61,116 nucleotides of DNA from Ignavibacteriales bacterium (GTDB taxonomy: Bacteria > Bacteroidota > Ignavibacteria > UBA10030 > BY39): NCBI GenBank assembly GCA_037443685.1, contig JBBINX010000006.1:1-61116 (forward strand), given 5' to 3'. Position numbers and translations under genes: made by a program. The notes under the pieces were generated by a model. That model had not been told where the DNA came from, searched no databases, and worked only from the letters and a program-made list of their open reading frames with translations. This document shows positions 6,957 through 22,485 of this stretch, piece by piece. Position 1 is the stretch's first letter. Each line of letters begins with the position of its first letter.

Positions 6957-9194
6957 ATGGTAAAATTATCACACGTAGCAACTGATATCAATACACCTGT
7001 TCAATTTATTAAAGGAATCGGACCTCGGCGCGCTGAAATTTTTGCTCGACACGGTATCAAAACAGTTCGCGATATTCTTTATTATTTCCCATTCGATTAT
7101 CTAAATCTAACTGAAATATCATCAATAGGTTCCCTCCGCAGATTAGCAGATACGAATAAATTAGTATCTGTGATAGGAAAAGTGAAAGCGATTGATATCG
7201 TAGGAAGACCACCTCGAAGACGATGTGTTATTATTATCGGCGACAAATCGGGCACACTACCATTAGTATTTTTTCAAAATATTAATTACTTCAAATCGGC
7301 TTTTCAGTTAGAGGAAACTATTGCAGTCTCTGGCAAAATAAACAACTATATGAATCGTGTTCAGATTGTGCATCCACGAATTGACCGTGTAGATGTCAAC
7401 GAAGGAAACGATATAACGGGTTTCTTACACACAAAAGGTTTGATACCTAAATATTCATCTAATGAAGACTTCAGATTAGCGAGAATTACTGATACGGTTT
7501 TTCGTAAGATTATGAAGAACGTTGTTGAACAATATGCACAGTCAGTTGAAGAGATACTCCCAGAGAAAATTTTAGTTAACAATAATTTAGTTACATTAGC
7601 AAAAGCATTGCACGATGTTCATTTCCCTTTATCTGACACCGAAAAAGATACTGCTCGTCAAAGGTTAAAGTTTGACGAATGGTTCTTTTTTCAACTTTTA
7701 CAGGCATACAGAAAGAAAAAAAATAAAGTTGACCTCCCTGGTATTCCATTTAAAATAGAGAGCAAGTTAGCTCGCCGTTTGGTTGATTCGCTGCCATTTA
7801 AATTGACTAAAGCTCAAATTCGTGTAATCAAAGAAATTACGACCGATATGCATCAACCCAAACCAATGAACCGGCTGCTTCAAGGCGACGTTGGTAGTGG
7901 AAAAACTATCGTTGCCATCATCGCTATGCTCATTGCGATCGAAAACAATTATCAGGTAGCGTTCATGGCTCCTACAGAAATTTTAGCCGAGCAGCATCAC
8001 AAAACACTCATTAAATTCTTAGGAAACTTACCAGTAAACGTACGGTTACTCATCGGTGGACAGCGAAGAGCTTTACGTCAAGATATTTTGGAAGATATCA
8101 AACGAGGAACCGTAAATATCATAGTCGGTACACACGCACTGACCCAGGAAAAAGTTGAATTTGCAAACGTTGGATTGGTCATAATTGACGAACAGCACCG
8201 ATTTGGTGTTGCACAAAGAGCCGAATTGATGCGCAAAGGAAAAGAAAGCATTAAAGTAACGCCCGATGTAATAGTTATGACAGCTACACCTATCCCACGT
8301 ACATTATCACTCACTGTTTATGGAGACTTAGACATTTCAGTAATAGACGAGATGCCTAAAGACAGGAAGAGCATTCGAACTCTCATCATACCCGAATCGA
8401 GCCCAGACAAACTTCATAGGATGATGCGGGAACATATACAAAGAGGAGAGCAAGTATATATTATATATCCGATCATCGAAGAATCAGAAAAGGTTGACCT
8501 GAAAGCGGCAGTAGAAAATTTTGAGATACTCAAAAACAAGATCTTCCCCGATTTTCGAGTTGCGCTTATCCATGGCCGTCTGTCGTCCGAAGAGAAAGAT
8601 AAAGTAATGGACGACTTTAAAAATAAGCGGATAGATATACTAGTATCTACGACCGTTATCGAAGTTGGTATCGACATACCGAATGCAACGCTGATGGTAA
8701 TCGAACATGCTGAAAGATTCGGGCTTTCACAGTTGCATCAACTGCGCGGTCGTGTAGGCAGGGGAGCAGACCAATCTTTTTGTGTATTAATCGTGCCAGA
8801 CTGGCTCGCACAGATAGCAGGGAGGCGATCACACACACAAGGAATTTTATACGGCGATAATAGTCAATTTTCCACAAATTTTAGCGATTTTGACCAGCAA
8901 AATGCTCTGACCAGAATTCTAACAATGCTCGAAACGTTAGATGGATTTAAAATTGCCGAAGTCGATTTGAAACTTAGAGGTCCGGGAGATTTCTTCGGTA
9001 CACGCCAGAGCGGTTTACCCGAATTGCATATTGCCAATGTGCTTGAAGACAGAAAAATAATTTTAGCTGCACGTAAGGAAGCTTTCCGTCTTGTCGATAG
9101 CGATCCGCATCTCAGGATAAAAGAAAATCAATGCGTCAGAAAATATTTTTACGATACGCTCAAAGATTCTTTAAACTTTTTTCAGGTCGGTTGA
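6957..9194 (+). CDS. recG: ATP-dependent DNA helicase RecG
   Basis: 745 aa. Wedge/OB N-domain, [15 protein letters not shown] (Walker A), [31 protein letters not shown]. Confidence 0.93.
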
Positions 9195-9274
9195 ACCTGT
9201 CCAATCATCATTTATCGAACACTTCACTTCCCAAAAAATATTTTCACTTTTTTTTTAAAAAATGCATTTTTTTC

Positions 9275-9302
9275 TTGACTTAAATTATAAATATTTTATA
9301 TT
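9275..9302 (+). promoter_or_regulatory. Possible sigma-70-like promoter of the ATP-grasp/GNAT/KamA operon
   Basis: TTGACT (9275-9280), a 16 nt spacer, then TATATT (9297-9302), about 80 nt upstream of the ATG at 9380. Pattern match only. Confidence 0.3.
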
Positions 9303-9379
9303 ACATACTGAGAATCAGATGATAACAAGTATGTATAACAATAAATGAGGATCTGACGAGTTATTTGATAAGTCTTCCG

Positions 9380-10447
9380 ATGAATGTTGCGCTCGTTTAC
9401 AATCAAAAGAAGGAAGATACAAAACCAGAAAACGATCACGAGCCTCCTGATGAAAATCAAAATAAATTATCAGAACTGAATAGTGATCTGTCCGAAGATA
9501 CTTATGCTGAATGGGATACATTCGAGACTATAAATTCGGTGCGCGAAGCGCTATCAGAATTTCATAATGTCACACTCATAGAAGCGGATGAGTACGCCTA
9601 TCAAAAATTCCTCCATGTGAAACCCGATATTGTTTTCAACATTGCTGAAGGTTTTAACGGTGTTTCGCGCGAATCTCAAATTCCTGCTATTCTTGAGCTT
9701 CTTCAAATTCCTTATACAGGATCAGACCCACTTACCTTAGGTATTTGTCTCGATAAAGCAAGAACCAAAGAAATCCTATCATATTACGGCATTTCTACAC
9801 CTCGATTTAGCGTGATTAATTCGATTTCGGAGATGGTTAGTGCAAATATAGATTTTCCGAGTATCGTAAAACCTAAACATGAGGGTTCAAGCAAAGGCAT
9901 TTTTAATTCTTCTATCGTAAGGAATTGGGATGAGTTGATATCTCGAGTAACTTTTGTGATTGAGACATACCGACAACCGGCGCTAGTTGAAGAATTTTTA
10001 GATGGACGTGAATTTACTGTTGCGTTACTGGGTAATGGAAAAGATGTTAAAGTGCTTCCTATCGTCGAAATGAAATTCGATTCATTGCCTACTGAAGTTA
10101 ACCCTATATATTCTTATGAAGCTAAATGGATTTGGGATAATTCGGAATCACCACTGAATATTTTCGAATGTCCTGCGAACTTACCGGTTTCTCTAAAAAC
10201 TGAAATCGAGGATATTTGTTTGAATACATTTAATGTAATGAGATGCCGCGACTGGTGCCGCATCGATGTTCGCCTCGATTCGAAGGGTGTACCGAATATA
10301 CTTGAACTAAACCCTTTACCGGGAATCTTACCGAAGCCAGAAGATAATTCATGCTTCCCGAAAGCTGCACGGACAGCGGGAATGAATTACAAACAGCTTA
10401 TCCAAGAAGTATTAAATATAGCGGCAAAAAGATACGGGCTTTTATGA
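9380..10447 (+). CDS. D-Ala-D-Ala-ligase-like ATP-grasp enzyme, paralogue 1
   Basis: FPSIVKPKHEGSSKGI, LVEEFLDGREFTVALLGNG, CRIDVRLD..PNILELNPLPG. ATG at 9380 preferred over the TTG at 9365. An acidic insert (EDTKPENDHEPPDENQ) follows the first strand. Confidence 0.8.
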   Translation: MNVALVYNQKKEDTKPENDHEPPDENQNKLSELNSDLSEDTYAEWDTFETINSVREALSEFHNVTLIEADEYAYQKFLHVKPDIVFNIAEGFNGVSRESQIPAILELLQIPYTGSDPLTLGICLDKARTKEILSYYGISTPRFSVINSISEMVSANIDFPSIVKPKHEGSSKGIFNSSIVRNWDELISRVTFVIETYRQPALVEEFLDGREFTVALLGNGKDVKVLPIVEMKFDSLPTEVNPIYSYEAKWIWDNSESPLNIFECPANLPVSLKTEIEDICLNTFNVMRCRDWCRIDVRLDSKGVPNILELNPLPGILPKPEDNSCFPKAARTAGMNYKQLIQEVLNIAAKRYGLL

Positions 10448-11517
10448 AAAAAAAAATACACGTAGCTGTTGTTTATAACGAGCCAACTATTAGCACAAGT
10501 TCGGGCAGAAAATTTATCTCCGAATCAGGAATCCTTTATGAAGAGGGACAACCTATTACGGACGTTAGTCTTGATATGTCTGAAGCCGGTGTCCTCGCTG
10601 AGATGGAAGACATCAAACGGGCATTAATTGTGAACGGCTATAAAACTACACTTTTTAACGTTAATAGCGATATTTTGAGGCTGATTGATTTTTTAAGGGA
10701 AGAACAACCGGACGTTATTTTTAATATATGCGAAAGTATCGGAAAAGAATCATGCCACGAAATGCACGTAGCTGGTATTTATGAACTTTTGGGAATTCCC
10801 TACACTGGTGCAAGTGCATTGACCTTGGGATTAGCACAGAGTAAAGTTCGTGTAAAAGAGATTTTGGGCTATCATGGGTTGCCAACCCCAAAATTTCAAG
10901 TAATGAAAAACCCTGCGCGGATAGTGATTGAAGAAAATCTCGATTTTCCTTTATTTGTTAAACCCGTTCGCGAAGATGCAAGCGTAGGAATCTCATCAGA
11001 TTCAGTAGTATATAATCTCACCAACCTTCGCAAACAAGTTAGATATATTATAGAACAATTCAATCAGCCCGCACTTGTAGAAGAATATATTGACGGACGC
11101 GAACTCAATGTAGCAATTCTAGGTAATTCAAAACCTGTTGCGCTTCCGATTTCCGAGATAGATATGACTACCTTACCCGACAAATACCACAAAATTATTA
11201 CATACAACGCTAAGTGGATGAAAGGCACAGAAGAGTACGAACACACAAAGGGTTATTGTCCTGCCGATTTACCAGCAACATTGGAACAACAATTAAAAGA
11301 GATGGCATTGAAAGCTTACGCAATTATCGGAGGAAGAGATTATGCAAGAGTTGATTTCCGTTTAACTAAGGACAACAAGCCTTACATATTAGAGTTTAAT
11401 CCAAACCCCGATATCGCAAACGATGCCGGATTCGCTCGTTCTGTAAAAGCTTCAGGTCTGACGTTTGATGAGATGGTAAAACGTATTGTCGAATTAGCAT
11501 TCGAGAGGTTACCTTGA
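10444..11517 (+). CDS. D-Ala-D-Ala-ligase-like ATP-grasp enzyme, paralogue 2
   Basis: Start at MKKKIHVAVVYNEP, where ATG 10444 overlaps the upstream TGA as ATGA. Motifs FPLFVKPVREDASVGI, LVEEYIDGRELNVAILGN, ARVDFRL..PYILEFNPNPD. Same architecture as paralogue 1. Confidence 0.8.
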   Translation: MKKKIHVAVVYNEPTISTSSGRKFISESGILYEEGQPITDVSLDMSEAGVLAEMEDIKRALIVNGYKTTLFNVNSDILRLIDFLREEQPDVIFNICESIGKESCHEMHVAGIYELLGIPYTGASALTLGLAQSKVRVKEILGYHGLPTPKFQVMKNPARIVIEENLDFPLFVKPVREDASVGISSDSVVYNLTNLRKQVRYIIEQFNQPALVEEYIDGRELNVAILGNSKPVALPISEIDMTTLPDKYHKIITYNAKWMKGTEEYEHTKGYCPADLPATLEQQLKEMALKAYAIIGGRDYARVDFRLTKDNKPYILEFNPNPDIANDAGFARSVKASGLTFDEMVKRIVELAFERLP

Positions 11518-12023
11518 ATATTCGGCATCTACGTAAAGACGACAGAGAGCAAATACATCGTTTAATTATCGAAACCAATGTTTTTTCTGATGAAGAAGTA
11601 AATGTAGCGATGGAACTAATCGACATTTTTTTAAATAATCCTGTCCAAAAGGATTACAATATCTATTCTGCGATAGATAACGGTGAAGTCTTAGGTTATA
11701 TCTGTATCGGACCTACACCAATTACCGACGGGACATACGACCTTTATTGGATAGTCGTAAAAGCATCTGTCCACGGAAAAGGAGTTGGTAGAAAATTGAT
11801 TGAATTTGCAGAAAATAGTGTTAGAAAAAATAACGGACGACTGCTGGTAGCTGAAACATCGTCCCAAGAAAAATATCGTAACACTCGCGAGTTTTATTTG
11901 CGTGTCGGATATTCTGAGCTTGCGAAAATAAATGACTATTATAAAGTTGGCGACGACTTGATAATATATGGTAAGTATCTTCATTCAATATTCAATAATA
12001 ATTTTGGAGGACAAAAGGTATAA
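11514..12023 (+). CDS. GNAT family N-acetyltransferase (small, 169 aa)
   Basis: The TTG start overlaps the upstream TGA (TTGA). Acetyl-CoA binding block VVKASVHGKGVGRKLIEFAE and ...REFYLRVGY of the GNAT fold. Confidence 0.8.
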   Translation: MNIRHLRKDDREQIHRLIIETNVFSDEEVNVAMELIDIFLNNPVQKDYNIYSAIDNGEVLGYICIGPTPITDGTYDLYWIVVKASVHGKGVGRKLIEFAENSVRKNNGRLLVAETSSQEKYRNTREFYLRVGYSELAKINDYYKVGDDLIIYGKYLHSIFNNNFGGQKV

Positions 12024-13163
12024 ATGGAAATCTGGCAAGAAATGCTGAGAAAAAGTATTGACAGCGGAAAAGATTTAGTCGACCGCTTCGGTTTTGACAC
12101 AGCGATGGCAGAACGCCTTAATAAAATTTTCCATATTAGAATCAATCCATATTACTTAAGTTTGATTCGATATCCGGGAGACCCGATATGGCTTCAGTGC
12201 ATTCCTGACAACAAAGAGCTTGAAGTCGACGCATCACCGGAAGACCCGCTCGAAGAAGATTCGCATAGCCCGGTACCGAGTATTGTGCATCGGTATCCGG
12301 ATAGAGTGTTATTCCTTAGTACGAGTCAGTGCTCAATGTATTGTCGTTTCTGTACGCGAAAGAGAAAAGTAGGCGATTCCTCTAAAATTAATATGAAATA
12401 TATTCAGGATGGTATCAATTATATTGCAAAACATACTGAAATACGTGACGTTATCTTGTCTGGTGGCGACCCGCTTATGCTTACCGACTTCATGTTGGAA
12501 AAAATATTAAAAGGACTCCGGGACATACCACACATCGAAATAATTCGTCTCGGTACTAAAATGCCCTGCGTGCTTCCCCAACGCATCACCCCAAAATTAA
12601 CAAAGATGCTTCGAAAATACCATCCTATCTACATTAATACACATTTTAATCATCCTTGGGAAATCACACCCGAAGCAAAAAAAGCTTGCGAGATGTTAGC
12701 TGATGCCGGTATTCCTCTCGGAAATCAATCAGTTTTGATGAAGGGTGTCAACGATGACCCGGATGTGATGTTAGAGTTGATGCGTAAACTGCTCGCAATA
12801 CGTGTGAAGCCATACTACATGTACCAAGCCGATATTACAAAAGGGACCAACCATTTCCGCACATCGGTAAGTAAAGGTATGGAGATAATGGATAAACTTC
12901 GCGGTCACACTTCTGGTCTTGCAATCCCATACTACGTTATAGATGCACCCGGTGGTGGTGGTAAGATTCCACTTCTACCACAGTACGTTATTGGCAGAGC
13001 CGGCAATCAGCTAATAATGCGAAATTATAAATACGATATTTTCACATACCCCGACGTTGAAGAAGAACCGACTCCTACATCCCAAGTCGAACAACCTTAT
13101 ATGCGTAGGCGTAAAAATGGAAAGAAACATCAAGAACCCGAAAAGGTTTTGGTACAAGTTTAA
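12024..13163 (+). CDS. kamA: Lysine 2,3-aminomutase (KamA family radical SAM / PLP enzyme)
   Basis: CSMYCRFCTRK radical-SAM cluster motif, SGGDPL, NQSVLMKGVNDD, YYMYQADITKGTNHFRT, VIDAPGGGGKIPL. The ATG abuts the GNAT stop. Confidence 0.88.
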   Translation: MEIWQEMLRKSIDSGKDLVDRFGFDTAMAERLNKIFHIRINPYYLSLIRYPGDPIWLQCIPDNKELEVDASPEDPLEEDSHSPVPSIVHRYPDRVLFLSTSQCSMYCRFCTRKRKVGDSSKINMKYIQDGINYIAKHTEIRDVILSGGDPLMLTDFMLEKILKGLRDIPHIEIIRLGTKMPCVLPQRITPKLTKMLRKYHPIYINTHFNHPWEITPEAKKACEMLADAGIPLGNQSVLMKGVNDDPDVMLELMRKLLAIRVKPYYMYQADITKGTNHFRTSVSKGMEIMDKLRGHTSGLAIPYYVIDAPGGGGKIPLLPQYVIGRAGNQLIMRNYKYDIFTYPDVEEEPTPTSQVEQPYMRRRKNGKKHQEPEKVLVQV

Positions 13164-13361
13164 ACGAGCAAAGTCTGACTTAACTTTGAGGTCTTTGACG
13201 CTAGAATAATTTGGGTGCGATTAACAAATTATAAAACCATTTGGAGTTTGGAGGAGTAAAATTCAATCCTAAATTACAGTCGCGTGCCGCCAATGCACAT
13301 CCCCTATTCAGGGAGTTTGTGAAAGCGGCGGTGGGATATGGAAAATATAATAAAAAAAACC

Positions 13362-14705
13362 TTATGTGAATTTTGCTCCTTTCCACTCATGTACTCCGTT
13401 TTCATCTATTAGTGCGTGTACGAGGGTGGGGAGTGGTTTTTGTTTATCTGTAATCTGAAAACTGTTCAGCAATCTTTGTGCGGCATTACCGAGCGAATGT
13501 TTATCCTCTCCGTAAATTATAGCTAACACATCACCTTTTTCTATTGGGTCACAAACTTTTTTGTGAAAAATAATACCTGCTTTAGGGTCTATAACATCAT
13601 CCACCTTCATTCTTCCTGCGCCAACCATAATGCCCACAAATCCGACTTCAAGTGCATCGATGTTTTCTATGTATCCTGCAGAATTACTTTTTACTTCTAC
13701 AGAAAATTTACTCAGCGGATATTTTTTTAAATCCTCAATGAATGATTTATCGCCGCCTTGCCGTTCAACCATTTGCAGGAATTTTTTATAAGCCGCGCCT
13801 GATTTGACTGTGTCCATACATTTTGCAATACCTTCTTCAATTGTAATTGCTTTACCGCCTAACATAACCATCGCACCGCTTAGGAGATAAGTTACTTCCA
13901 TCAAGTCGGGGACATCTTTACCACGCATACACTCAACACACTCAACAACTTCAAGCCAGTTGCCGACAGCGTAACCGAGCGGCTGAGACATATCTGTTAG
14001 AAATCCGATTGTCTTCTTCCCGAAATTATTTCCAATTGCAATTAAAGTTTCTGCCAACTCTATTGCGCTCTCTTTGGATTGCATGAAAGCTCCGCGTCCG
14101 GTTTTTATGTCGAGTACGAGAGCATCAATTCCTTCGGCTAATTTTTTACTCATGATGCTTCCGGCAATGAGAGGGATGCATTCAACAGTTCCGGTTACAT
14201 CGCGGAGTGCGTACATTTTTTTATCGGCGGGCGCAATCTCTTTTGTCTGACCGATCATTACAAGTCCGATATCGGCGATAACTGATTTGTATTCTTCGAG
14301 TGAAAGGTTTGTGCGAAATCCGGGGATGGATTCTAACTTGTCTAACGTTCCGCCCGTGTGTCCAAGTCCGCGACCGGAAATCATCGGTACCGGAACACCG
14401 CAAGCCGCCACCATTGGCGCAAGGATTAGAGAGACTTTGTCACCAACGCCGCCCGTTGAATGTTTATCAACTTTTATTCCGGGGACGGAAGATAGGTCGA
14501 CGACTATGCCGGAGTTCAGCATGATATCTGTGAAGACGGCAGTCTCGTCGAAATCCATTTTGTTAAAATATACCGCCATCAAGAATGACGACATCTGGTA
14601 GTCAGGAATTTTTCCTTCAACATATCCTTTAATTATAAATTCCATTTCCTGACGCGAGAGTTTTTGTCCGTCTCGTTTTTTTCTGATTATTTCTACTGCA
14701 CTCAT
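13362..14705 (-). CDS. deoA: Thymidine / pyrimidine-nucleoside phosphorylase
   Basis: 447 aa. IIRKKRDGQKLS..E..FII.GY..G.IPDYQMS.FLMAV, DKHSTGGVGDK, SGRGLGHTGGTLDKLE. Confidence 0.92.
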   Translation of the reverse strand: MSAVEIIRKKRDGQKLSRQEMEFIIKGYVEGKIPDYQMSSFLMAVYFNKMDFDETAVFTDIMLNSGIVVDLSSVPGIKVDKHSTGGVGDKVSLILAPMVAACGVPVPMISGRGLGHTGGTLDKLESIPGFRTNLSLEEYKSVIADIGLVMIGQTKEIAPADKKMYALRDVTGTVECIPLIAGSIMSKKLAEGIDALVLDIKTGRGAFMQSKESAIELAETLIAIGNNFGKKTIGFLTDMSQPLGYAVGNWLEVVECVECMRGKDVPDLMEVTYLLSGAMVMLGGKAITIEEGIAKCMDTVKSGAAYKKFLQMVERQGGDKSFIEDLKKYPLSKFSVEVKSNSAGYIENIDALEVGFVGIMVGAGRMKVDDVIDPKAGIIFHKKVCDPIEKGDVLAIIYGEDKHSLGNAAQRLLNSFQITDKQKPLPTLVHALIDENGVHEWKGAKFT

Positions 14706-14741: not shown

Positions 14742-15299
14742 TCAATCTTTACAATCATTTAAATTTTTTAATTTCAGCATTCCAATCATTATTCCACAAA
14801 TTGTTTTTCCATCAACAATTTCCTGATTCTCAATCAGTTCGACAATTTTTTGGAGCGGAAGAATTTCAACGGTCATCGTAAGTTCGCCTTCTTCTAAATT
14901 CCTACCGTTCTTTGCGGGAAATAAATCTTGAGCCATAAATATGTGAAGCTGCTCTGTGCAAAAACCGGGAGATGTATAAATTGCTGTGAGTTTTTTCCAA
15001 TCGTTAGCTAGGTATCCTGTTTCCTCTTCTAATTCGCGTTTTGCGCAATCCAGCGGGTCTTCATTAGTGTTTAGTTTTCCCGCAGGTAATTCATAAATAA
15101 ATTTATCTATCGGATAACGATGTTGCTTTATAAGAATAACTTTATCGTCCGGAAAGATTGCAAAAATTACGGCACCTCCTGGATGTTCTGCCACTTCCCG
15201 AATCGAACGATTTCCCGATTCATACTCAACATTATCAACAATTGTGTTGAATACTTTTCCGCTGTAAACTATTTTTCGTTTAAGAAGTTTTAACTTCAT
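14742..15299 (-). CDS. NUDIX hydrolase (ADP-ribose pyrophosphatase-like)
   Basis: Nudix box GKLNTNEDPLDCAKRELEEETGY. 185 aa. Confidence 0.85.
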   Translation of the reverse strand: MKLKLLKRKIVYSGKVFNTIVDNVEYESGNRSIREVAEHPGGAVIFAIFPDDKVILIKQHRYPIDKFIYELPAGKLNTNEDPLDCAKRELEEETGYLANDWKKLTAIYTSPGFCTEQLHIFMAQDLFPAKNGRNLEEGELTMTVEILPLQKIVELIENQEIVDGKTICGIMIGMLKLKNLNDCKD

Positions 15300-16359
15300 C
15301 TCTGTTTACCAGATGTACAACTTGTTGAGGAAGTGGAATTATTATACCAGCATCTGCAAATGCTTTATAAATTTGTTCGCGGATTGATGTTTCGACGAGC
15401 CACTTTTTCTTGAAGTCGTCCGTACGCATATTTAAACGAAGCATAGCAGCCGATTGAGCGAAATCTATTAGAAACACCTCGGGTATCGGGTTTTTCATGA
15501 CATCAGGATGGTTGTTCGCAAGGTCAAGGAGTATTTTCCGTGCTTCTGCTATATCGGTTCCATATTTTACGCCTACATCTACCAATGCCCGGATTTCCTG
15601 TTGAGGATATGAATAATTTATTAGACGAGATTTTATTATTTCAGCGTTAGGTATGACAACATGATTATTGTCGAAGTTTAAAATGTGTGTACTTCTTAAA
15701 CCGATTTGTGTAACATCGCCGATTTCTCCGGACGGGAGTTGTATTCTATCTCCGACACGAAATGGCCTGTCGATCATAATTACAAATCCAGCGATCATAT
15801 TAGCGAGTGTATCTTGTGCCGCAAGAGCAATCGCTAAAGAACCCACACCTAACGATACGAGCAAACTTCCGATGCTAACTCCGAAGTGCTCTAATATAAT
15901 CATTAATCCTGTAAGAAATATTACAATGCTTATAATTTTTTTTGTAAGCGGGGCAATCGTCGCAGTTAGGTTGCTTTGTGTCTTGCGTGAGACCTCGTCC
16001 ATATACCATCCAAATATTGCTTCAATGAGCCGACTTATTAAGCGTGCAACTGCAAGAACAATTATAATAAAAATTGCAATTTGTAAATAGTATAGAATTT
16101 GATTCAGTGTAATATCGTCTGGTGTTGAAATTTTATTTAAATATTTGATACCTACGTATATGCCGATGATAACACAAATTAGTGTTGCATTACCACGCAG
16201 AACCTCTATGATTCGGTCATCAAGTGTAGTTTTTGTTTTCGTAAGTATCTGCTTCCCGAAGATGTTCAGTAAAATCTTTATTCCTTTACCGATTATCCAT
16301 GAGCCAACAATAATTGCTAAGGTTATTAACAGATGTTTTAAAAGAATATTTTCAAACAT
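15280..16359 (-). CDS. Mechanosensitive ion channel (MscS family)
   Basis: N-terminal TM helices then LANMIAGFVIMIDRPFRVGDRIQL..GEIGDVTQIGLRST, characteristic of the MscS beta-domain. Overlaps the Nudix gene by 20 nt. Confidence 0.88.
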   Translation of the reverse strand: MFENILLKHLLITLAIIVGSWIIGKGIKILLNIFGKQILTKTKTTLDDRIIEVLRGNATLICVIIGIYVGIKYLNKISTPDDITLNQILYYLQIAIFIIIVLAVARLISRLIEAIFGWYMDEVSRKTQSNLTATIAPLTKKIISIVIFLTGLMIILEHFGVSIGSLLVSLGVGSLAIALAAQDTLANMIAGFVIMIDRPFRVGDRIQLPSGEIGDVTQIGLRSTHILNFDNNHVVIPNAEIIKSRLINYSYPQQEIRALVDVGVKYGTDIAEARKILLDLANNHPDVMKNPIPEVFLIDFAQSAAMLRLNMRTDDFKKKWLVETSIREQIYKAFADAGIIIPLPQQVVHLVNRDEVKTS

Positions 16360-17063: not shown

Positions 17064-17864
17064 TCATTCTATATGCACCTTCTTGACTACTCCCATTTTT
17101 TGCCCCAGAAACAATTCGCCAATTTCAAGAAATTTATGAGGTAAGTCGCTAACGAAAAATTGTACATTAGCTTTTAATTTACTTGGGTTGCGTAAACCTG
17201 TTTCGTTAAGGATTTGGTCAACTGCCGCGGCTGTGCACTTTCCCGAATCGACGAGTTGAACTGTTTCGCCCACTGCTTTCTGGATAACATCCCCGAGAAT
17301 CGGATAATGTGTGCAGCCCAAAATAAGTGTATCAATTTTGTGAAGTTTAAGAGGGAAAAGATATTCTTTTGCAATCAATGCAGTGGCAGGATGTTTTGTC
17401 CAACCTTCTTCAGCGAGAGGAACAAATAATGGACATGGCTGTGAAAACACTTCGAAAGATGTATCGATTTGGTGGATTGCATTTGTGTAAGCGTTACTTA
17501 AAACTGTTGTGAGTGTTCCGATAACACCGATGCGTTTCTTTTTACTCGATTGAATGGCACTCTCGGCTCCCGGCATGATAACTCCAATAACCGGTATTTT
17601 GGAGCGTTTTTGTACAACATCTATAGCTACAGATGAAACCGTGTTGCACGCGACGATAATCATCTTCACATTTTTTGAGAGCAGAAAGTCTGTATCCTGT
17701 GCTGCGTACTCCCGCACGACTTGCGATGATTTGGGCCCGTAGGGAACCCTCGCAGTGTCGCCGAAGTAAACAATATTTTCGTTAGGAAGTCTGTGTATTA
17801 AAGCCCGAACAACAGTAAGCCCGCCGATGCCCGAGTCGAATATACCTATTGGTTTGGTATTCAT
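17064..17864 (-). CDS. murI: Glutamate racemase
   Basis: IGIFDSGIGGLTV, catalytic-Cys blocks IVACNT and LGCTHYP. Confidence 0.92.
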   Translation of the reverse strand: MNTKPIGIFDSGIGGLTVVRALIHRLPNENIVYFGDTARVPYGPKSSQVVREYAAQDTDFLLSKNVKMIIVACNTVSSVAIDVVQKRSKIPVIGVIMPGAESAIQSSKKKRIGVIGTLTTVLSNAYTNAIHQIDTSFEVFSQPCPLFVPLAEEGWTKHPATALIAKEYLFPLKLHKIDTLILGCTHYPILGDVIQKAVGETVQLVDSGKCTAAAVDQILNETGLRNPSKLKANVQFFVSDLPHKFLEIGELFLGQKMGVVKKVHIE

Positions 17865-18059: not shown

Positions 18060-21000
18060 CTATTTTAAAAGTGTAAACTTCTTCACAGAATTAAATGAAC
18101 CGGCCGTAAGTTGATAGAAATAAACACCGCTTGCCAAACCATTTGCGTTAAAATTCACGCGGTAATTACCGGCTTTCATTTCCTCATTGACCAAGGAAGT
18201 AACTTCCTGTCCGAGCAGGTTATAAATTTTCAGAGTAACCAATCCGCTTTTTGGTATGGTGAAATCGATAGTAGTCGCCGGGTTAAACGGATTTGGATAA
18301 TTTTGACTTAATGAATAAACATCAGGAAATCCAGACCCGACCTCATTCACACTTACTCTGATCGAGTCAGCTCCGCCAGCTTCGTAATAACGCGCTGCAA
18401 ATTCCTGCAAGAATAAATTTGCGACCCGGTTGTCTTTTACTATCACAGTGTTTTCATCATTTCTGTTTTCTGCTGCGTTTGACCAGTTATGCGAACCGGT
18501 AATTAAATACGAGGTTAATCCAAACGGTTCAGCATCAACAATTGCGTATTTGTGATGTAAGAATCCTGTCCCTGCTTTTAAACGAACATCTACACCATTC
18601 GTCTGCAAGTAACTGAATTGATTTCCGTCATCAGTATTGTTGCTCATAATTACGCGTGTTTTTCTTAGTCTATTTTTTTGAGCAATTATAGAATCAGCCA
18701 GTTCTTTTCTCGTGAATGAAAGAATTGCAACAGCGATTGAGCCTTGTGCTCTTCCTAAAGTTTTGCCTATATATGATGTTGTTCTGTCGGTTGGACTGAA
18801 ATAGCATTCAACAGGCACTCCACCGATAACGAATTTATGTGGTGTATTGTTAATCTTTCTAGCGCCGAATCTTGAATTTGCTGAGTTAGGTGAATCAGTA
18901 TTGCTTCCCCACATTTCTTCAAACTCACGTGTGTATGCCCCAGCTAATGCGACATCTTGGAATTCTATTACATTCTGTCTGTCATCATATGTTCCGGGGT
19001 CGGTTGGATTCCAGGAGCCAGTCCAAACCCAAACACTATCGGGAGCGCCGTTTCGATAGTCAAACACAAAAAACTTGTTGTGGTGTAAACCTGTCCCGTC
19101 ATTCGCACCATAGAAATCATTAATTACGGGAATTCCATTTGTGCTTAATGTTGACCAAGGGACAGTAGTTCTAGTATCATACTCACCAATAACGCGAACT
19201 TTCACACCCCTATTTTTAGCATTCACTAATGCACTGGCGATGGTTGCGCCAGGTGTACCGCTTAAACTGTAGAGTGCAACATCAATAGAGCGCCGAGCGT
19301 TATTAATTCTTTCAACAATTTTTGATGTATAATCAAAATTACTCAATGCAATTTCGCCAGTAGAAACCGAGGTGTTTACAGTTTTATTAAAATAAACATT
19401 TATCATTCCGGTTGTAGGAGATTTTGATGTAGTGCTGGCAATTAAATTTCCCGCAAAGCTTGTGTCTGTTCCCGAAACAGAAAATGCCTGGATGTTATAA
19501 ATTGTAGCTGAAGTCAAACCTGTTATTGTAACTGAATGAGATGTTCTTAAATCATTGTCTGGTGCGATAACGCCCAATTCATAATTTGCCGTAACACCAT
19601 ATCGCACGCGTGAAGTTCCATTGTTGATGGTTTTCCAAACAATTGTCAGTGAGGAAGAATCGATATTTGATTCTTCAGGAGATACTAAAAATAACGGTCC
19701 TGTAGAGATGATGTCTGTTGTAAATCGAGGCATAATTTGATAACCACCGATTAAAGGTGAGGTAGTTTTATACTGGCTAACCACACCAATCACATCGAAA
19801 GCTCCGGCTGGGGCAACAGTTCCAACTATATTGACACTTTCATCAATCCTTATCTGTACTGTGTCTGTCGGCGAAACTCCTCTCAGGCGATAATTTTTTC
19901 CGGATGTAGCGCCACTCCATGTCGTAACAGGACTTCCGTTTATTTCAGTTACAGTTACTCCGTTTAACCGAACTAATAAACCCTCATAATTTTCGATTCC
20001 ACCAATTCCATCGTTGTTGACCTGAGTTGGTGTTAATAACAATGGGTCAACTGTATTTCCTGTACTTATAATTGAATGTAGAGTAGGATTTTCGATTTGA
20101 TTTAATCCCCCGAACTGCGTAACATTACCGCTTACTAACACTTCGTCGCCGATATTTACTGATGCCGAGAATGGCACACTATAAATAGACATGCCACCAG
20201 AATTATCTTGAATATAGGATGGACTTGGAAATTGATTTGAAACTGTAATAATTCCACGCACCGTTACAAGATCGCCGATTCTTGTAGAAGCTCCGTTAGC
20301 ATCGTTCACTTTAACTTCGCTGATCGGAATTGCTGCACCATAAACAGTAATTACCGGGATAGGAGCAACATCACCATAACTTCCGTTTGCACCCGATTGA
20401 GTTTTAAATTTATACTTACCCGTAAAAATTGCTGATGTTATCGGAGAAATTGTAATCTCTGTTGAATCTATGTTGAACGAGATATCCGTAAAATAAATTG
20501 TATCCCCGATTACATTAGCAGTTGCAGTCATGTTTGTATAGTTGACATTGCTAATATTCTTTGACCATGAAAATTCGGGTGGAACGATTATTCTTAAATT
20601 GTTAACCGCAAAAGCTGGGTCTTTTCGATATGTAATTTTAATTGTTGTATCTACACTTCCAGTTAATAGTGTGGGTGCTATAGAAACCGAGCCAGATCCT
20701 TCTGGGCGAGCTCGTAACAAACTTATCCATGCTGAATTAGCCGTAGTGTTACCTGAGCCACGTGTGATAGTTGAAGAATTTTGTGACCAATTTGTGACAG
20801 TTGTAAGTTGATTAACATTATCACCATTAAAAAAAGTAGTAGTATTCGACGTTGAAGCTGTTGTAAAGTGAACTTTTGGCGAAGGAATGCTATTTACATT
20901 GGCAGCTCCCCAAGAAACGCCGAAAATATGGGTTTGTACAGTATTACGGATTTGCACCGCGTCGCTGGTTCCAGCAATTGAAAAAACCGTGCCCGTAAAG

Positions 21001-21338
21001 TAGGTGGAATTATTTGATTTGACTGTTAATGTATAATCGCTTGCATCTAAATCTTCTGCAAATGTATTCTCAGGTCGGGCAACAATTATTATAGTACCTG
21101 ACCGTAAATTATTCCACAAGGCATTTGTGGTAAAAACTAATGGGGCGATGGGACTACCTGCACTACTAAAGTCTCTTATATCCCAACCTCTCATATCTAA
21201 ACCGTCTTGAACGACAAGCAATTCAATCCATTCATCGTTGGCGCTTGAATTATAAAGTTCATTAATAATAACCGATTGTGAAAAAATAGCAGACGTCGTA
21301 AATATTATTAATGTAAAAATAAATGCAAATTTATTCAT
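18060..21338 (-). CDS. Secreted multidomain protein: lamin-tail domain, OB-like domain, FN3, two-HKD phospholipase-D-like domain, T9SS C-terminal sorting domain
   Basis: Signal peptide MNKFAFIFTLIIFTTSAIFSQ. LTD start VIINELYNSSANDEWIELLV. ExeM/NucH-type OB-like block GDLVTVRGIIT...GDEVLVSGNVTQFGGLNQI. FN3-like LTIVWKT...RVRYG...YNIQA. HKD motifs LHHNKFFVFD and LHHKYAIVD...GSHNWSNAAENRNDEN. CTD NYPNPFNPATTIDF...GVYFYQL...KKFTLLK. Confidence 0.85.
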   Translation of the reverse strand: MNKFAFIFTLIIFTTSAIFSQSVIINELYNSSANDEWIELLVVQDGLDMRGWDIRDFSSAGSPIAPLVFTTNALWNNLRSGTIIIVARPENTFAEDLDASDYTLTVKSNNSTYFTGTVFSIAGTSDAVQIRNTVQTHIFGVSWGAANVNSIPSPKVHFTTASTSNTTTFFNGDNVNQLTTVTNWSQNSSTITRGSGNTTANSAWISLLRARPEGSGSVSIAPTLLTGSVDTTIKITYRKDPAFAVNNLRIIVPPEFSWSKNISNVNYTNMTATANVIGDTIYFTDISFNIDSTEITISPITSAIFTGKYKFKTQSGANGSYGDVAPIPVITVYGAAIPISEVKVNDANGASTRIGDLVTVRGIITVSNQFPSPSYIQDNSGGMSIYSVPFSASVNIGDEVLVSGNVTQFGGLNQIENPTLHSIISTGNTVDPLLLTPTQVNNDGIGGIENYEGLLVRLNGVTVTEINGSPVTTWSGATSGKNYRLRGVSPTDTVQIRIDESVNIVGTVAPAGAFDVIGVVSQYKTTSPLIGGYQIMPRFTTDIISTGPLFLVSPEESNIDSSSLTIVWKTINNGTSRVRYGVTANYELGVIAPDNDLRTSHSVTITGLTSATIYNIQAFSVSGTDTSFAGNLIASTTSKSPTTGMINVYFNKTVNTSVSTGEIALSNFDYTSKIVERINNARRSIDVALYSLSGTPGATIASALVNAKNRGVKVRVIGEYDTRTTVPWSTLSTNGIPVINDFYGANDGTGLHHNKFFVFDYRNGAPDSVWVWTGSWNPTDPGTYDDRQNVIEFQDVALAGAYTREFEEMWGSNTDSPNSANSRFGARKINNTPHKFVIGGVPVECYFSPTDRTTSYIGKTLGRAQGSIAVAILSFTRKELADSIIAQKNRLRKTRVIMSNNTDDGNQFSYLQTNGVDVRLKAGTGFLHHKYAIVDAEPFGLTSYLITGSHNWSNAAENRNDENTVIVKDNRVANLFLQEFAARYYEAGGADSIRVSVNEVGSGFPDVYSLSQNYPNPFNPATTIDFTIPKSGLVTLKIYNLLGQEVTSLVNEEMKAGNYRVNFNANGLASGVYFYQLTAGSFNSVKKFTLLK

Positions 21339-21831: not shown

Positions 21832-22485
21832 TTATAGATTCTTTATCACTTTCACTACTTTCCAAATAAACGAAACGTCTCGTCTTTTCACTGAAACCGG
21901 CTCAAATTCAAGATTTAGCGGTATTAAATGGATATGTGTATCATCGAATTTTATTTTTTTGAGGACATCCTCATCATTTACCCGAACCACACATATATCG
22001 CCATTTCTCGTTTCATGTTTTGGGCTGACTACTACAATATCGCCATCTTCAATCCGTGGCGACATACTAGCTCCTTTTACAACTAAGGCAAAAGCATTCG
22101 GGTCGTTAATATTGTCGATGGTTACATAACTCTCTACATAATCAGGATGGAACATGGGTGCAGTTCTTCCAGCTGGAACTGAAGATAGAAGCGGAACTTC
22201 TACTAAAGGAATTCTTTTCAGTGCATTTGGTTTTTGAAACGGAAGAATTTTTCCTGGTGCTGTTGGTAATGGATACATCTCATTTTCACCGGTTAAAAGC
22301 CATTCGGGACGGACGCCTAAATGTTTAGCGAGTCGCATCAAAAAGTTGCTGTCGGGAACTTGCTCTCCTTTTTCCCAGCGCTGGAGCGTACGTACTGCAA
22401 CATCAACTTTTGTTGCAAGTGTATGTTGGTCAAGCTCTTTATTTTCGCGAGCTTCACGGATTCGGATTCCTATTGTTGTTTTCAT
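21832..22485 (-). CDS. XRE-family HTH / S24 peptidase repressor (LexA- or phage CI-like)
   Basis: N-terminal Cro/CI HTH (LDQHTLATKVDVAVRTLQRWEKGEQVP). C-terminal S24 fold with the Ser block VKGASMSPRIEDGDIVVV and the Lys block DEDVLKKI. Confidence 0.85.
   Translation of the reverse strand: MKTTIGIRIREARENKELDQHTLATKVDVAVRTLQRWEKGEQVPDSNFLMRLAKHLGVRPEWLLTGENEMYPLPTAPGKILPFQKPNALKRIPLVEVPLLSSVPAGRTAPMFHPDYVESYVTIDNINDPNAFALVVKGASMSPRIEDGDIVVVSPKHETRNGDICVVRVNDEDVLKKIKFDDTHIHLIPLNLEFEPVSVKRRDVSFIWKVVKVIKNL

Follow-up and report, generated by a model that had tools for sequence, protein, structure and literature searches.

A gapless operon of two ligases, an acetyltransferase and an aminomutase

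The window, i.e. the whole 61-kb stretch of DNA analyzed here, contains four co-directional genes on the plus strand. AG1 (9380-10447) and AG2 (10444-11517) were identified from the ORF list and profile matches as encoding ATP-grasp ligases of the Ddl fold. They are followed by a gene for a small N-acetyltransferase of 169 aa (GNAT; 11514-12023, TTG start), assigned by Pfam matches, and by KamA (12024-13163), a radical-SAM/PLP enzyme of the lysine 2,3-aminomutase family according to profile matches and an alignment with 2A5H. A preceding sequence-only reading had described these genes as a set without gaps, and the ORFs confirmed this packing: AG1 and AG2 share an ATGA (10444-10447), AG2 and the GNAT gene share a TTGA (11514-11517), and the TAA at 12021-12023 abuts the KamA ATG at 12024. 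The longest ORF for AG1 begins with a TTG at 9365; the ATG at 9380 gives the N-terminus MNVALVYN, which is typical of the family.

The operon is flanked by recG on one side and a pyrimidine-nucleoside phosphorylase gene on the other, i.e. it does not lie in a mur/fts cluster, and neither mur/fts genes nor a further Ddl-like ORF were found within the window. Between recG and the operon lies an AT-rich gap of 185 bp, which holds the top match to a sigma-70-like promoter (9275..9302, plus strand; TTGACT, 16 nt, TATATT; 10/12 consensus positions). As promoter-like matches in the region are no more common than in shuffled sequence, we treat this candidate as a lead only. No Rfam elements or riboswitches were detected in 8500-14000.

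AG1 and AG2 are intact ligases that miss the Ddl cut-offs

Both ligases matched the Pfam family Dala_Dala_lig_C (E=8e-36 for AG1, 9e-40 for AG2), AG2 giving an additional weak match to RimK, and the two proteins are 39% identical to each other. The motifs initially read from their translations (VKPKHEGSSKGI / VKPVREDASVGI; EEFLDGRE / EEYIDGRE; ILELNPLPG / ILEFNPNPD) are all present, and the suggestion that neither ligase is a dead copy proved correct, with every catalytic residue retained in both. Indeed, equivalents of the ATP-grasp core residues Lys97, Lys144, Glu180, Glu187, Lys215, Arg255, Asp257, Glu270 and Asn272 occur in 100% of AG1 and AG2 orthologs.

The top curated matches of the two proteins were exclusively Ddl or Van ligases, and their homologs are labeled D-alanine--D-alanine ligase in public annotation. 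Scores against the corresponding models fell short of the curated cut-offs, both for the best NCBIfam Ddl model, NF002378 (188.9 bits for AG1 and 167.8 for AG2 vs. 243), and for TIGR01205 (160.4 and 147.7 vs. 245.65). Likewise, neither ligase has the full Glu15-Ser150-Tyr216 triad together with the D-Ala2 site, Ser281/Leu282. At these positions AG1 has Ala, Ser, Trp and Ser/Cys, and AG2 has Ser, Ala, Trp and Ala/Gly, with Trp replacing Tyr216 in 100% of AG1/AG2 orthologs. This mapping rests on an alignment with DdlB, which is uncertain in the N-terminal region that places Glu15.

Judged from the aligned residues, AG1 is the more Ddl-like paralog, as it retains the equivalents of Ser150, Gly276 and Ser281. 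AG2 carries the motif NPNPD and two additional Asp residues in the substrate pocket region, Asp178 (DdlB Gly149) and Asp323 (DdlB Gly276), which are invariant among AG2-type proteins. Motifs particular to the ligase family comprise FNxxE, AKW and NPNPD. The solved folds nearest to an AlphaFold model of AG2 (pLDDT 91) were all Ddl enzymes (TM about 0.73, identity 20-25%), and the solved relatives of AG1 and AG2 act on small-molecule substrates in every case.

KamA ranks with AblA, and the GNAT lies outside the AblB family

KamA passed the family model TIGR00238 (303.8 bits vs. a cut-off of 199.2). Its highest-scoring curated model was that of AblA (474.7 bits), albeit below the cut-off of the TIGR03820 equivalog (525.4); the glutamate and arginine 2,3-aminomutase models scored 427 and 346, and EpmB (TIGR03821) was missed by a wide margin (238.5 vs. 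369.3). On model scores, KamA ranks as AblA-type and not as EpmB, so that a clustering with EpmB, named beforehand as a refuting outcome, is not borne out. The KamA of delta-type cassettes scored just above the NCBI equivalog cut-off for lysine 2,3-aminomutase (527.8 vs. 525.4).

Alignment of KamA with Clostridium lysine 2,3-aminomutase (2A5H; E=1e-118) revealed conservation of the CxxxCxxC motif, Asp293, Asp330 and Lys337, an Asp in place of Cys268, and a short form in which the Clostridium C-terminal region is missing. The motifs CSMYCRFCTRK, QADIT and VIDAPGGGGK, as quoted beforehand, are found in the translation, and the residue roles assigned to them hold in this alignment: the Asp of QADIT corresponds to Asp293 and that of VIDAPGGGGK to Asp330, the two residues that bind the lysine epsilon-amine in the Clostridium structure, and the final Lys of the latter motif aligns with the PLP lysine, Lys337. 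The Fe-S motif, the PLP lysine and both lysine-specific Asp residues are conserved in 55/55 cassette KamAs.

The GNAT matched the Pfam families Acetyltransf_7/_1/_10, and its translation displays the acetyl-CoA loop HGKGVGRKL. The NCBIfam AblB model gave no match even at E<=1, and the best curated match, RimI, remained below its cut-off (40.2 vs. 86.4 bits). AblB proteins are about 270-290 aa long. With no model match and a length of 169 aa, the GNAT does not qualify as AblB, as the sequence-only reading had surmised. By the measure of these models, the parts of the cassette do not fit the known families: the ligases are not Ddl by cut-offs, the GNAT is not AblB and KamA is not EpmB.

The cassette is conserved across bacteria and archaea

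Linkage was assessed in 80 related loci whose AG2 gene is flanked by 3 kb or more on each side. KamA lay within 7 kb of AG2 in 59 of these 80 (74%), and the complete four-gene set was present in 37/80. In a count over genome loci, the order AG1-AG2-GNAT-KamA was found in about 45 of 80, with differing flanks. Cassette loci span Ignavibacteriota and relatives, Planctomycetota, Myxococcota, Deltaproteobacteria and Bathyarchaeia, with varying gene orders and flanks, and variants occur in Kapaibacteria and Kryptonia-type MAGs. The proposal of a distinct pathway had been staked on a gene order conserved in related genomes; conservation of order and content, with variants, indeed extends well past Ignavibacteria, to all of these groups. 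Bathyarchaeia possess all four genes in shuffled order, and AG1-type orthologs were found both there and on an archaeal-looking metagenome contig (L087). Deltaproteobacteria show a minimal (delta-type) arrangement in which KamA immediately precedes AG2, and no GNAT was found near such loci. Sigma-54 activators adjoin or lie within delta- and myxo-type cassettes.

GNAT orthologs were recovered from Ignavibacteriota-type loci, a Planctomycetota locus, L068, L070, L085 and L087-type fusions. At two further loci (L054 and L084) the orthologous GNAT is missing and non-orthologous GNATs occupy its place in the cluster. AG2-type genes occur alone, without KamA, in 18/80 well-flanked loci and there encode identical invariant pocket residues, and an AG2-GNAT fusion stands alone, without the cassette, in Wallbacteria. 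Either KamA resides elsewhere in these genomes or AG2 is not strictly dependent on beta-lysine.

Fused genes are known for each adjacent pair, i.e. KamA–AG1, AG1–AG2 and AG2–GNAT. The KamA–AG1 fusion occurs at two loci (L162, 698 aa; L136). In the AG1–AG2 fusions (L084 and L085; Myxococcota and a metagenome contig), an AG1-type half is N-terminal and an AG2 half C-terminal, and KamA and a GNAT flank each of them. The AG2–GNAT fusions, in which the ligase part is N-terminal, include one on L087 that adjoins AG1 and KamA, and P0132. Among the best 25 of 33-43 curated matches of these AG2–GNAT fusions, we found Ddl-type models and no Ngg model; within the same selection, P0147 also matched NF002563 (annotated as argininosuccinate lyase) and a pseudomurein ATP-grasp model.

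No additional gene was tied to the cassette across phyla, including any consistently linked hydrolase or asparagine-synthetase-like gene; cassette loci yielded neither a conserved small ORF nor a conserved intergenic element, and efp was absent from the window and from the 87 loci examined. The source habitats (groundwater, soils, sediments, hot springs and sludge) are not notably saline. Conserved on dozens of unrelated contigs and with its parts fused, the arrangement is far beyond chance.

A proposed route to an acetylated beta-lysine conjugate

What has been observed is that the four enzymes can be identified and are intact, that their genes are linked across phyla, and that they occur as fusions. 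From these observations we infer, with a confidence only somewhat better than even, that the four genes form a self-contained cassette producing a small cytoplasmic N-acetylated beta-lysine conjugate of di- or tripeptide-like nature. KamA would convert L-lysine to beta-lysine. AG1 and AG2, presumably anciently diverged ligases, would each use ATP to activate a carboxylate as an acyl-phosphate for coupling to an amine, and together they would form two amide bonds in succession, one or both of them on beta-lysine. The GNAT would then acetylate a leftover free amino group at the expense of acetyl-CoA. With no extra gene tied to the cassette across phyla, its co-substrates have to be common metabolites. 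The order of steps is unresolved, as the fusions join KamA to AG1 but Deltaproteobacteria place KamA beside AG2.

An acetylated beta-lysine conjugate had been inferred from the window alone. Of the four outcomes named in advance as refuting this idea, three were checked, by way of cassette conservation and the AblB and EpmB models, and all spoke in its favor; the chemistry of the product and an osmolyte function remain inference. Indeed, in the absence of chemical evidence it is by inference that we take beta-lysine as a ligase substrate, order the steps, regard the product as a small molecule and assign it a physiological role. A role as stress protectant or solute is our leading guess, with an osmolyte function only weakly founded given that the habitats are not notably saline. 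We found no published description of the cassette in the literature; it can be tested directly by experiment.

Alternative readings

The ligases might be D-Ala-D-Ala (or D-Ala-D-X) ligases that merely share a transcript with an AblA/AblB-like pathway to N-epsilon-acetyl-beta-lysine, made up of KamA and the GNAT. Their best curated matches and public annotation, the AblA model as best match of KamA, and the lack of another ddl within the 61-kb window would be compatible with such a mixed operon. Yet we judge it highly improbable, given bit scores of 189 (AG1) and 168 (AG2) against Ddl subfamily cut-offs of 243-246, the replacement of Tyr216 by Trp and, subject to the uncertain N-terminal alignment, of Glu15 by Ala/Ser, the fusion of ligases to KamA and GNAT, a GNAT without an AblB match, and a locus between recG and the phosphorylase gene instead of in mur/fts. 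Sub-cut-off scores, the missing Glu15 and Tyr216 and the occurrence of the pair in archaea argue against a cell-wall Ddl role altogether; Bathyarchaeia are not known to have murein, and the presence of the pair in this group disfavors a murein function of AG1 and AG2. Another possibility is that the ligases act on a substrate other than beta-lysine (e.g. alpha-lysine, ornithine or a polyamine), KamA feeding a side branch or providing no more than the acetyl acceptor. The 18 KamA-less loci, where AG2 keeps identical invariant acidic residues, and the stand-alone AG2-GNAT fusions of Wallbacteria leave room for this; KamA-AG1 fusion proteins, the proximity of KamA in 74% of well-flanked loci from very distant lineages, and its position directly upstream of AG2 in the minimal delta-type arrangement make it improbable.

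Beta-lysine could also end up on something larger. In one version, the acceptor is a carboxylate or amine on a protein or another polymer, to which the ATP-grasp enzymes would couple beta-lysine or a short beta-lysyl peptide, and this addition would then be acetylated. Such a system would parallel EF-P beta-lysylation without needing EpmA, or resemble RimK/RimI-type tagging. Protein modification is established for ATP-grasp enzymes from other clades, such as RimK and the tubulin-tyrosine-ligase-like enzymes; RimI is the best curated match of the GNAT, AG2 weakly matches RimK in Pfam, and conservation across domains without a transporter or regulator is what a housekeeping modification would look like. 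This version is unlikely in our view: the RimI match is far under its cut-off (40 vs. 86 bits), the ligases have the three-domain Ddl fold whose solved relatives are all small-molecule enzymes, no candidate target gene is linked, efp is absent from the window and the 87 loci, and no small ORF or intergenic element is conserved. A poly- or oligoamide containing beta-lysine appears more doubtful still; it would serve as a nitrogen reserve in the manner of cyanophycin or be a cationic polymer, with one ligase extending the chain, the other adding a branch and the GNAT capping or regulating. Cyanophycin synthetase has two ligase sites, which the paired activities resemble; moreover, sigma-54 activators accompany delta- and myxo-type cassettes, and a related AG1-type double ligase adjoins a gene for a Peptidase_S58 (DmpA/BapA-type aminopeptidase). 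That gene, however, was seen at one locus only, where KamA is missing; hydrolases are not consistently linked to the cassette, an acetyltransferase is unexpected for a storage polymer, and no primer or carrier gene is present. Overall, an ATP-grasp system common to bacteria and archaea that either attaches beta-lysine, subsequently acetylated, to a macromolecule or builds a polyamide containing it is a minority prospect that we do not dismiss; if real, it would amount to a novel type of modification or reserve polymer and not a free solute.

Comparison with known systems

Returning to the small acetylated conjugate that we favor, one close precedent is AblA/AblB, a lysine 2,3-aminomutase and an acetyltransferase encoded as an operon pair (2003, as reviewed in PMC1224877). 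The cassette likewise combines a KamA-family enzyme, for which AblA is the top model, with a GNAT, and its expected chemistry is likewise the acetylation of an amine on beta-lysine. It differs in its two integral ATP-grasp ligases, which are even fused to KamA and GNAT, in a GNAT of 169 aa that the AblB model does not match, and in the KamA of the window, which scores too low for the AblA model, has no equivalent of Cys268 and is missing the C-terminal region. EpmB/EpmA-dependent beta-lysylation of EF-P is similar in that a KamA-family enzyme feeds beta-lysine to an ATP-dependent ligase. EpmA is a LysRS paralog, whereas the cassette ligases are ATP-grasp enzymes; KamA is far from the EpmB cut-off (238.5 vs. 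369.3), and neither efp nor epmA is linked.

Compared with Ddl and VanA-type D-Ala-D-Lac/D-Ser ligases, AG1 and AG2 share the three-domain ATP-grasp fold (TM about 0.73) and the ATP/Mg and transition-state residues. They are set apart by 20-25% identity, by missing all curated cut-offs, by the Tyr216-to-Trp exchange, by motifs of their own, by a context outside the cell-wall cluster and by their presence in archaea.

Precedent for joining GNAT and peptide-bond-forming activities in one enzyme comes from Ngg of the Ngg/AsnO pathway, which yields the acetylated dipeptide osmolyte N-acetylglutaminylglutamine amide (NAGGN; Sagot et al. 2010, via PMC8070244). N-acetylation plus an ATP-dependent peptide bond gives a charge-masked solute there, and ligase-GNAT fusions exist in the cassette family, too. 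In contrast, NAGGN synthesis is not known to involve an aminomutase or beta-amino acid; the cassette has no AsnO-type amidotransferase, and its AG2-GNAT fusions carry the ligase N-terminally. The fusions do not qualify as Ngg (NAGGN synthetase), with no Ngg model among the best 25 of 33-43 matches and no asnO linkage. Finally, the negamycin neg cluster (bioRxiv 10.1101/2025.05.27.656397) illustrates that beta-lysine formation and an ATP-grasp ligase can be encoded in one cluster. This cluster serves antibiotic production in an actinomycete and includes enzymes for hydroxylation, N-N formation and methylation, whereas the cassette, without tailoring, export or resistance genes, is spread over uncultured anaerobes and archaea.

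Organization of the AG1-AG2-GNAT-KamA cassette

Two Ddl-fold (D-Ala-D-Ala-ligase-like) ATP-grasp ligases, AG1 and AG2, a 169-aa GNAT acetyltransferase and the lysine 2,3-aminomutase KamA are encoded in a co-directional run without intergenic space, as had been inferred from the sequence alone and is borne out by the ORFs at window positions 9380-13163. AG1 (9380-10447, +) can be extended to a TTG at 9365, ATG 9380 giving the family-typical N-terminus; the ATG of AG2 (10444-11517, +) overlaps the AG1 stop codon as ATGA (10444-10447), the TTG start of GNAT (11514-12023, +) overlaps the AG2 stop codon as TTGA (11514-11517), and the ATG of KamA at 12024 (12024-13163, +) is abutted by TAA at 12021-12023. 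All peptide motifs quoted in the sequence-only reading were recovered in the translations.

Upstream, recG (6957-9194) is separated from the operon by an AT-rich gap of 185 bp that contains the best sigma-70-like match of the region (9275-9302); promoter and terminator scans gave counts no higher than the shuffled expectation. A riboswitch or RNA leader for the operon was rejected, as Rfam returned no element within 8500-14000 at E<=1 and, at gathering score, none in the whole window, which is also devoid of tRNA genes. Downstream lie a pyrimidine-nucleoside phosphorylase gene on the opposite strand, a gene for an MscS-type mechanosensitive channel (15280-16359, -; ~2 kb from the operon) and an Asp/Glu racemase-family gene (17064-17864, -; within 2-4 kb), the latter two not being kept beside the cassette in other lineages. 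The window, with a G+C content of 38%, encodes proteins with T9SS sorting domains, among them one of 1092 aa that combines two PLD-like domains with a C-terminal sorting domain (18060-21338, -), as well as an S24/HTH CI- or LexA-like repressor (21832-22485) and, at its edge (36-1196, +), an ORF matching family-B DNA polymerases (Pfam DNA_pol_B, E=2e-26), unusual for a bacterial chromosome region. It contains neither mur/fts genes nor an additional Ddl-like ORF, and the nearest AG2 homologues belong to MAGs of Ignavibacteriota and Bacteroidota.

KamA retains the lysine-specific residues

KamA passed the KamA-family model TIGR00238 (303.8 bits, cut-off 199.2). Among the specific models, AblA ranked highest at 474.7 bits, under its cut-off of 525.4, followed by glutamate 2,3-aminomutase (427), arginine 2,3-aminomutase (346) and AblA_like_2 (318); EpmB came last of those listed (238.5), KamA thus ranking as AblA-type and not as EpmB. 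Alignment with the solved Clostridium enzyme (2A5H, E=1e-118) showed CxxxCxxC and the PLP lysine Lys337 to be kept, and confirmed that the equivalents of both lysine-specific residues, Asp293 and Asp330, are retained; this pair is present in 55/55 cassette KamAs. The zinc ligand Cys268 of 2A5H is replaced by Asp in the window protein, which also stops short of the C-terminal region of the Clostridium enzyme. Across 56 aligned cassette KamAs, this position is never Cys but most often Asp (35 copies), otherwise Asn (10), Lys (7), Ser (3) or Arg (1). Judged by sequence, cassette KamAs probably lack the subunit-bridging zinc site.

GNAT possesses the usual acetyl-CoA loop, with RimI as its best curated match, under cut-off. 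No AblB model matched even at E<=1, which speaks against an enzyme of the AblB type. In two related loci from other genomes (L054 and L084), no orthologous GNAT was detected and a different GNAT holds its place in the cluster. Streptothricin acetyltransferases (Sat2/3/4, STAT), which acetylate a beta-lysine moiety at its beta-amino group, gave weak sub-threshold matches to all three cassette GNAT types (window 11514-12023, L054:9321-9872 and L084:10494-11003), a similarity that probably reflects generic GNAT likeness.

AG1 and AG2 are distinct Ddl look-alikes

AG1 and AG2 share 39% identity and both match Pfam Dala_Dala_lig_C, while their scores against curated Ddl and Van models all remained far under the cut-offs. 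PDB sequence searches with the ligases revealed nothing nearer than Ddl structures, and the AlphaFold model of AG2 (pLDDT 91) matched Ddl structures only (TM about 0.73, 20-25% identity). We aligned 45 AG1 and 55 AG2 orthologues to E. coli DdlB, the alignment being uncertain in the N-terminal region. ATP/Mg and transition-state residues were 100% conserved in both groups; the D-Ala-specific residues of DdlB were not. Glu15 is replaced by Ala in AG1 and Ser in AG2, Tyr216 by Trp in all orthologues of both types and Gly276 by an invariant Asp in AG2, with Ser150 and Ser281 being retained in AG1 only. The family has invariant charged residues of its own (the Glu of FNxxE, Glu238 and Asp299), to which AG2 adds Asp178 and Asp323 at the region of the Ddl substrate pocket.

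A substrate with additional amino groups would suit these extra invariant Asp residues. However, they do not prove beta-lysine use, since lone AG2 genes, with no KamA nearby, carry the same residues. Pocket residues were accordingly rejected as a discriminator between users and non-users of beta-lysine, the acidic residues being invariant whether or not KamA is present. The split between AG1 and AG2 is ancient: copies from archaea, myxobacteria and planctomycetes fall cleanly into one type or the other. A representative-protein search recovered about 1,740 clusters of such Ddl look-alikes at 50% identity (E<1e-30); the ligases are publicly annotated as D-alanine--D-alanine ligase or ATP-grasp protein.

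The cassette is conserved across bacterial and archaeal lineages

The prediction that gene order would be conserved in relatives held. When one genome per species was scanned (80 loci, HMM-based annotation), about 45 loci showed the order AG1-AG2-GNAT-KamA, in Ignavibacteriota, Kapaibacteria, Kryptonia-type MAGs, one Planctomycetota MAG and others. A 413-kb contig with a 67%-identical AG2 homologue has the same four-gene order in wholly different flanks. In two contigs of Bathyarchaeia, AG2 adjoins AG1 and KamA on the opposite strand; one of these (L054), whose archaeal origin is confirmed by a nearby eRF1 gene, also has a GNAT. A metagenome scan centred on archaeal AG2 added 80 more loci with the same picture. 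Among 80 loci of the pooled scans with >=3 kb on both sides of AG2, KamA lies within 7 kb in 59, all four genes are present in 37 and AG2 stands alone in 18. Source habitats were not notably saline. One Ignavibacteria-like cassette with recG upstream is on a contig binned as Synechococcus sp. UW140 (L029, CALRIY020000025.1), probably through mis-binning.

Deltaproteobacteria have a variant in which KamA precedes AG2 (eight contigs), with an AG1-like gene about 5 kb upstream in 5/8. Pfam scanning of L074:3757-10960, the only locus of this type so scanned, identified a histidine kinase, a sigma-54 response regulator and a receiver domain between the AG1-like gene and KamA-AG2, and no GNAT. Neighbour clustering grouped matching ORFs from further loci resembling it (L069, L076, L080, L082, L100-L103, L110, L112, L115-L117, L119 and L129), suggesting this variant to be under signal-dependent control.

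Lone AG2 genes occur in Ignavibacteriaceae and Melioribacter MAGs (L044, L058, L064 and about 15 further loci, at ~10000-11070), with no KamA, AG1 or GNAT within 10 kb. They keep every invariant pocket residue of cassette AG2 and are oriented divergently to an isochorismatase gene and a conserved ORF of 278 aa that has no Pfam match. These neighbours, together with DUF6580 and a TonB receptor, were uninformative as functional clues.

Neighbour-ORF clustering of 94 cassette loci revealed no gene shared between the phyla, be it for a transporter, amidotransferase, racemase, peptidase or regulator. Synteny was lineage-specific only, namely recG in Ignavibacteriota, and the two-component/sigma-54 set, TatC, an RlmI-like methyltransferase and AspRS in Deltaproteobacteria. 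A link to EF-P was rejected, as efp is missing both from the window and from the 87 loci collected before the metagenome scan. Canonical ddl was likewise missing from the collected loci, which span only about 20 kb each, so that its absence there is uninformative for whole genomes.

Gene fusions connect all four proteins

The representative-protein search also returned longer proteins, which Pfam resolved into ligase-GNAT and ligase-ligase fusions. In a Myxococcota locus (L084) and a metagenome contig (L085), KamA is followed by an AG1-AG2 fusion and then GNAT; an archaeal-looking contig (L087) has AG1, KamA and an AG2-GNAT fusion, in that order. At L162:7939-10035 (+), an in-frame 698-aa ORF joins a complete KamA domain to an AG1-type ligase, as confirmed by NCBIfam, and a second, contig-truncated KamA-AG1 fusion is found on an independent metagenome contig (L136:38-1804, +). 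Thus, every adjacent pair in the chain KamA / AG1 / AG2 / GNAT occurs somewhere as a single polypeptide, which is strong evidence that the four proteins act in one pathway.

At L086:3181-6368, a 682-aa double ligase with two AG1-type halves is directly followed by a Peptidase_S58 (DmpA/BapA-type aminopeptidase) gene, and KamA is absent; the locus may represent a related system for synthesis and cleavage of another peptide.

A putative ligase-dependent beta-lysine pathway

The best-supported reading is that of a self-contained biosynthetic unit, in which KamA would make beta-lysine, the non-redundant ligases AG1 and AG2 would create two amide bonds, one or both involving beta-lysine, and GNAT would acetylate a free amine. 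Evidence on the order of steps conflicts, as fusions join KamA-AG1 and AG2-GNAT and Deltaproteobacteria have KamA beside AG2. An ordinary Ddl together with an AblA/AblB pair is contradicted by model scores, residues, archaeal occurrence and fusions. That the ligases use something other than beta-lysine is kept alive by the lone AG2 genes, yet weakened by the KamA-AG1 fusions.

As to the product, a small molecule is favoured by the position of the ligases in the Ddl branch of the ATP-grasp superfamily, by the lack of a linked target gene and, by analogy, by the nearest functional precedents, which are charge-masked acetylated solutes. Modification of a macromolecule is not excluded, having weak RimI and RimK similarities in its favour but no other positive support. 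A RiPP-like reading, with radical SAM enzyme, ATP-grasp ligase and GNAT acting on a precursor peptide, was rejected: neither a conserved small ORF nor conserved intergenic DNA was found beside the cassette, its radical-SAM member is a PLP aminomutase and its ligases belong to the Ddl type instead of the graspetide type. A cyanophycin-like polymer has only three hints in its favour, namely that there are two ligases, that sigma-54 regulators occur and that one related double ligase lies beside an S58 aminopeptidase gene. The physiological role, as a solute, as a nitrogen-rich metabolite or otherwise, is a guess.

Comparison with known beta-lysine systems

A full-text literature search found no description of the cassette, with the amidoligase survey literature incompletely covered, and AG1, AG2 and GNAT are all unclaimed by the curated NCBIfam models. 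The cassette delineates two large subfamilies of 'D-alanine--D-alanine ligase' look-alikes, many of them mis-annotated in public databases, and occurs widely among little-studied anaerobes, most of them uncultured (Ignavibacteriota, Deltaproteobacteria, Myxococcota, Planctomycetota and Bathyarchaeia). Being small, self-contained and domain-crossing, it is testable with four genes, and identification of its product would yield new ligases for beta-amino-acid peptides.

Beta-lysine has four recognised fates, namely the osmolyte N-epsilon-acetyl-beta-lysine, EF-P modification, lysine fermentation and specialised antibiotics, mainly of actinomycetes. If the proposed pathway is true, the cassette would represent a fifth, ligase-dependent route. 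Its enzymes are of known kinds; their combination is new, and the product is not identified. From the negamycin-type cluster it is evident only that one cluster can encode both beta-lysine formation and an ATP-grasp ligase.
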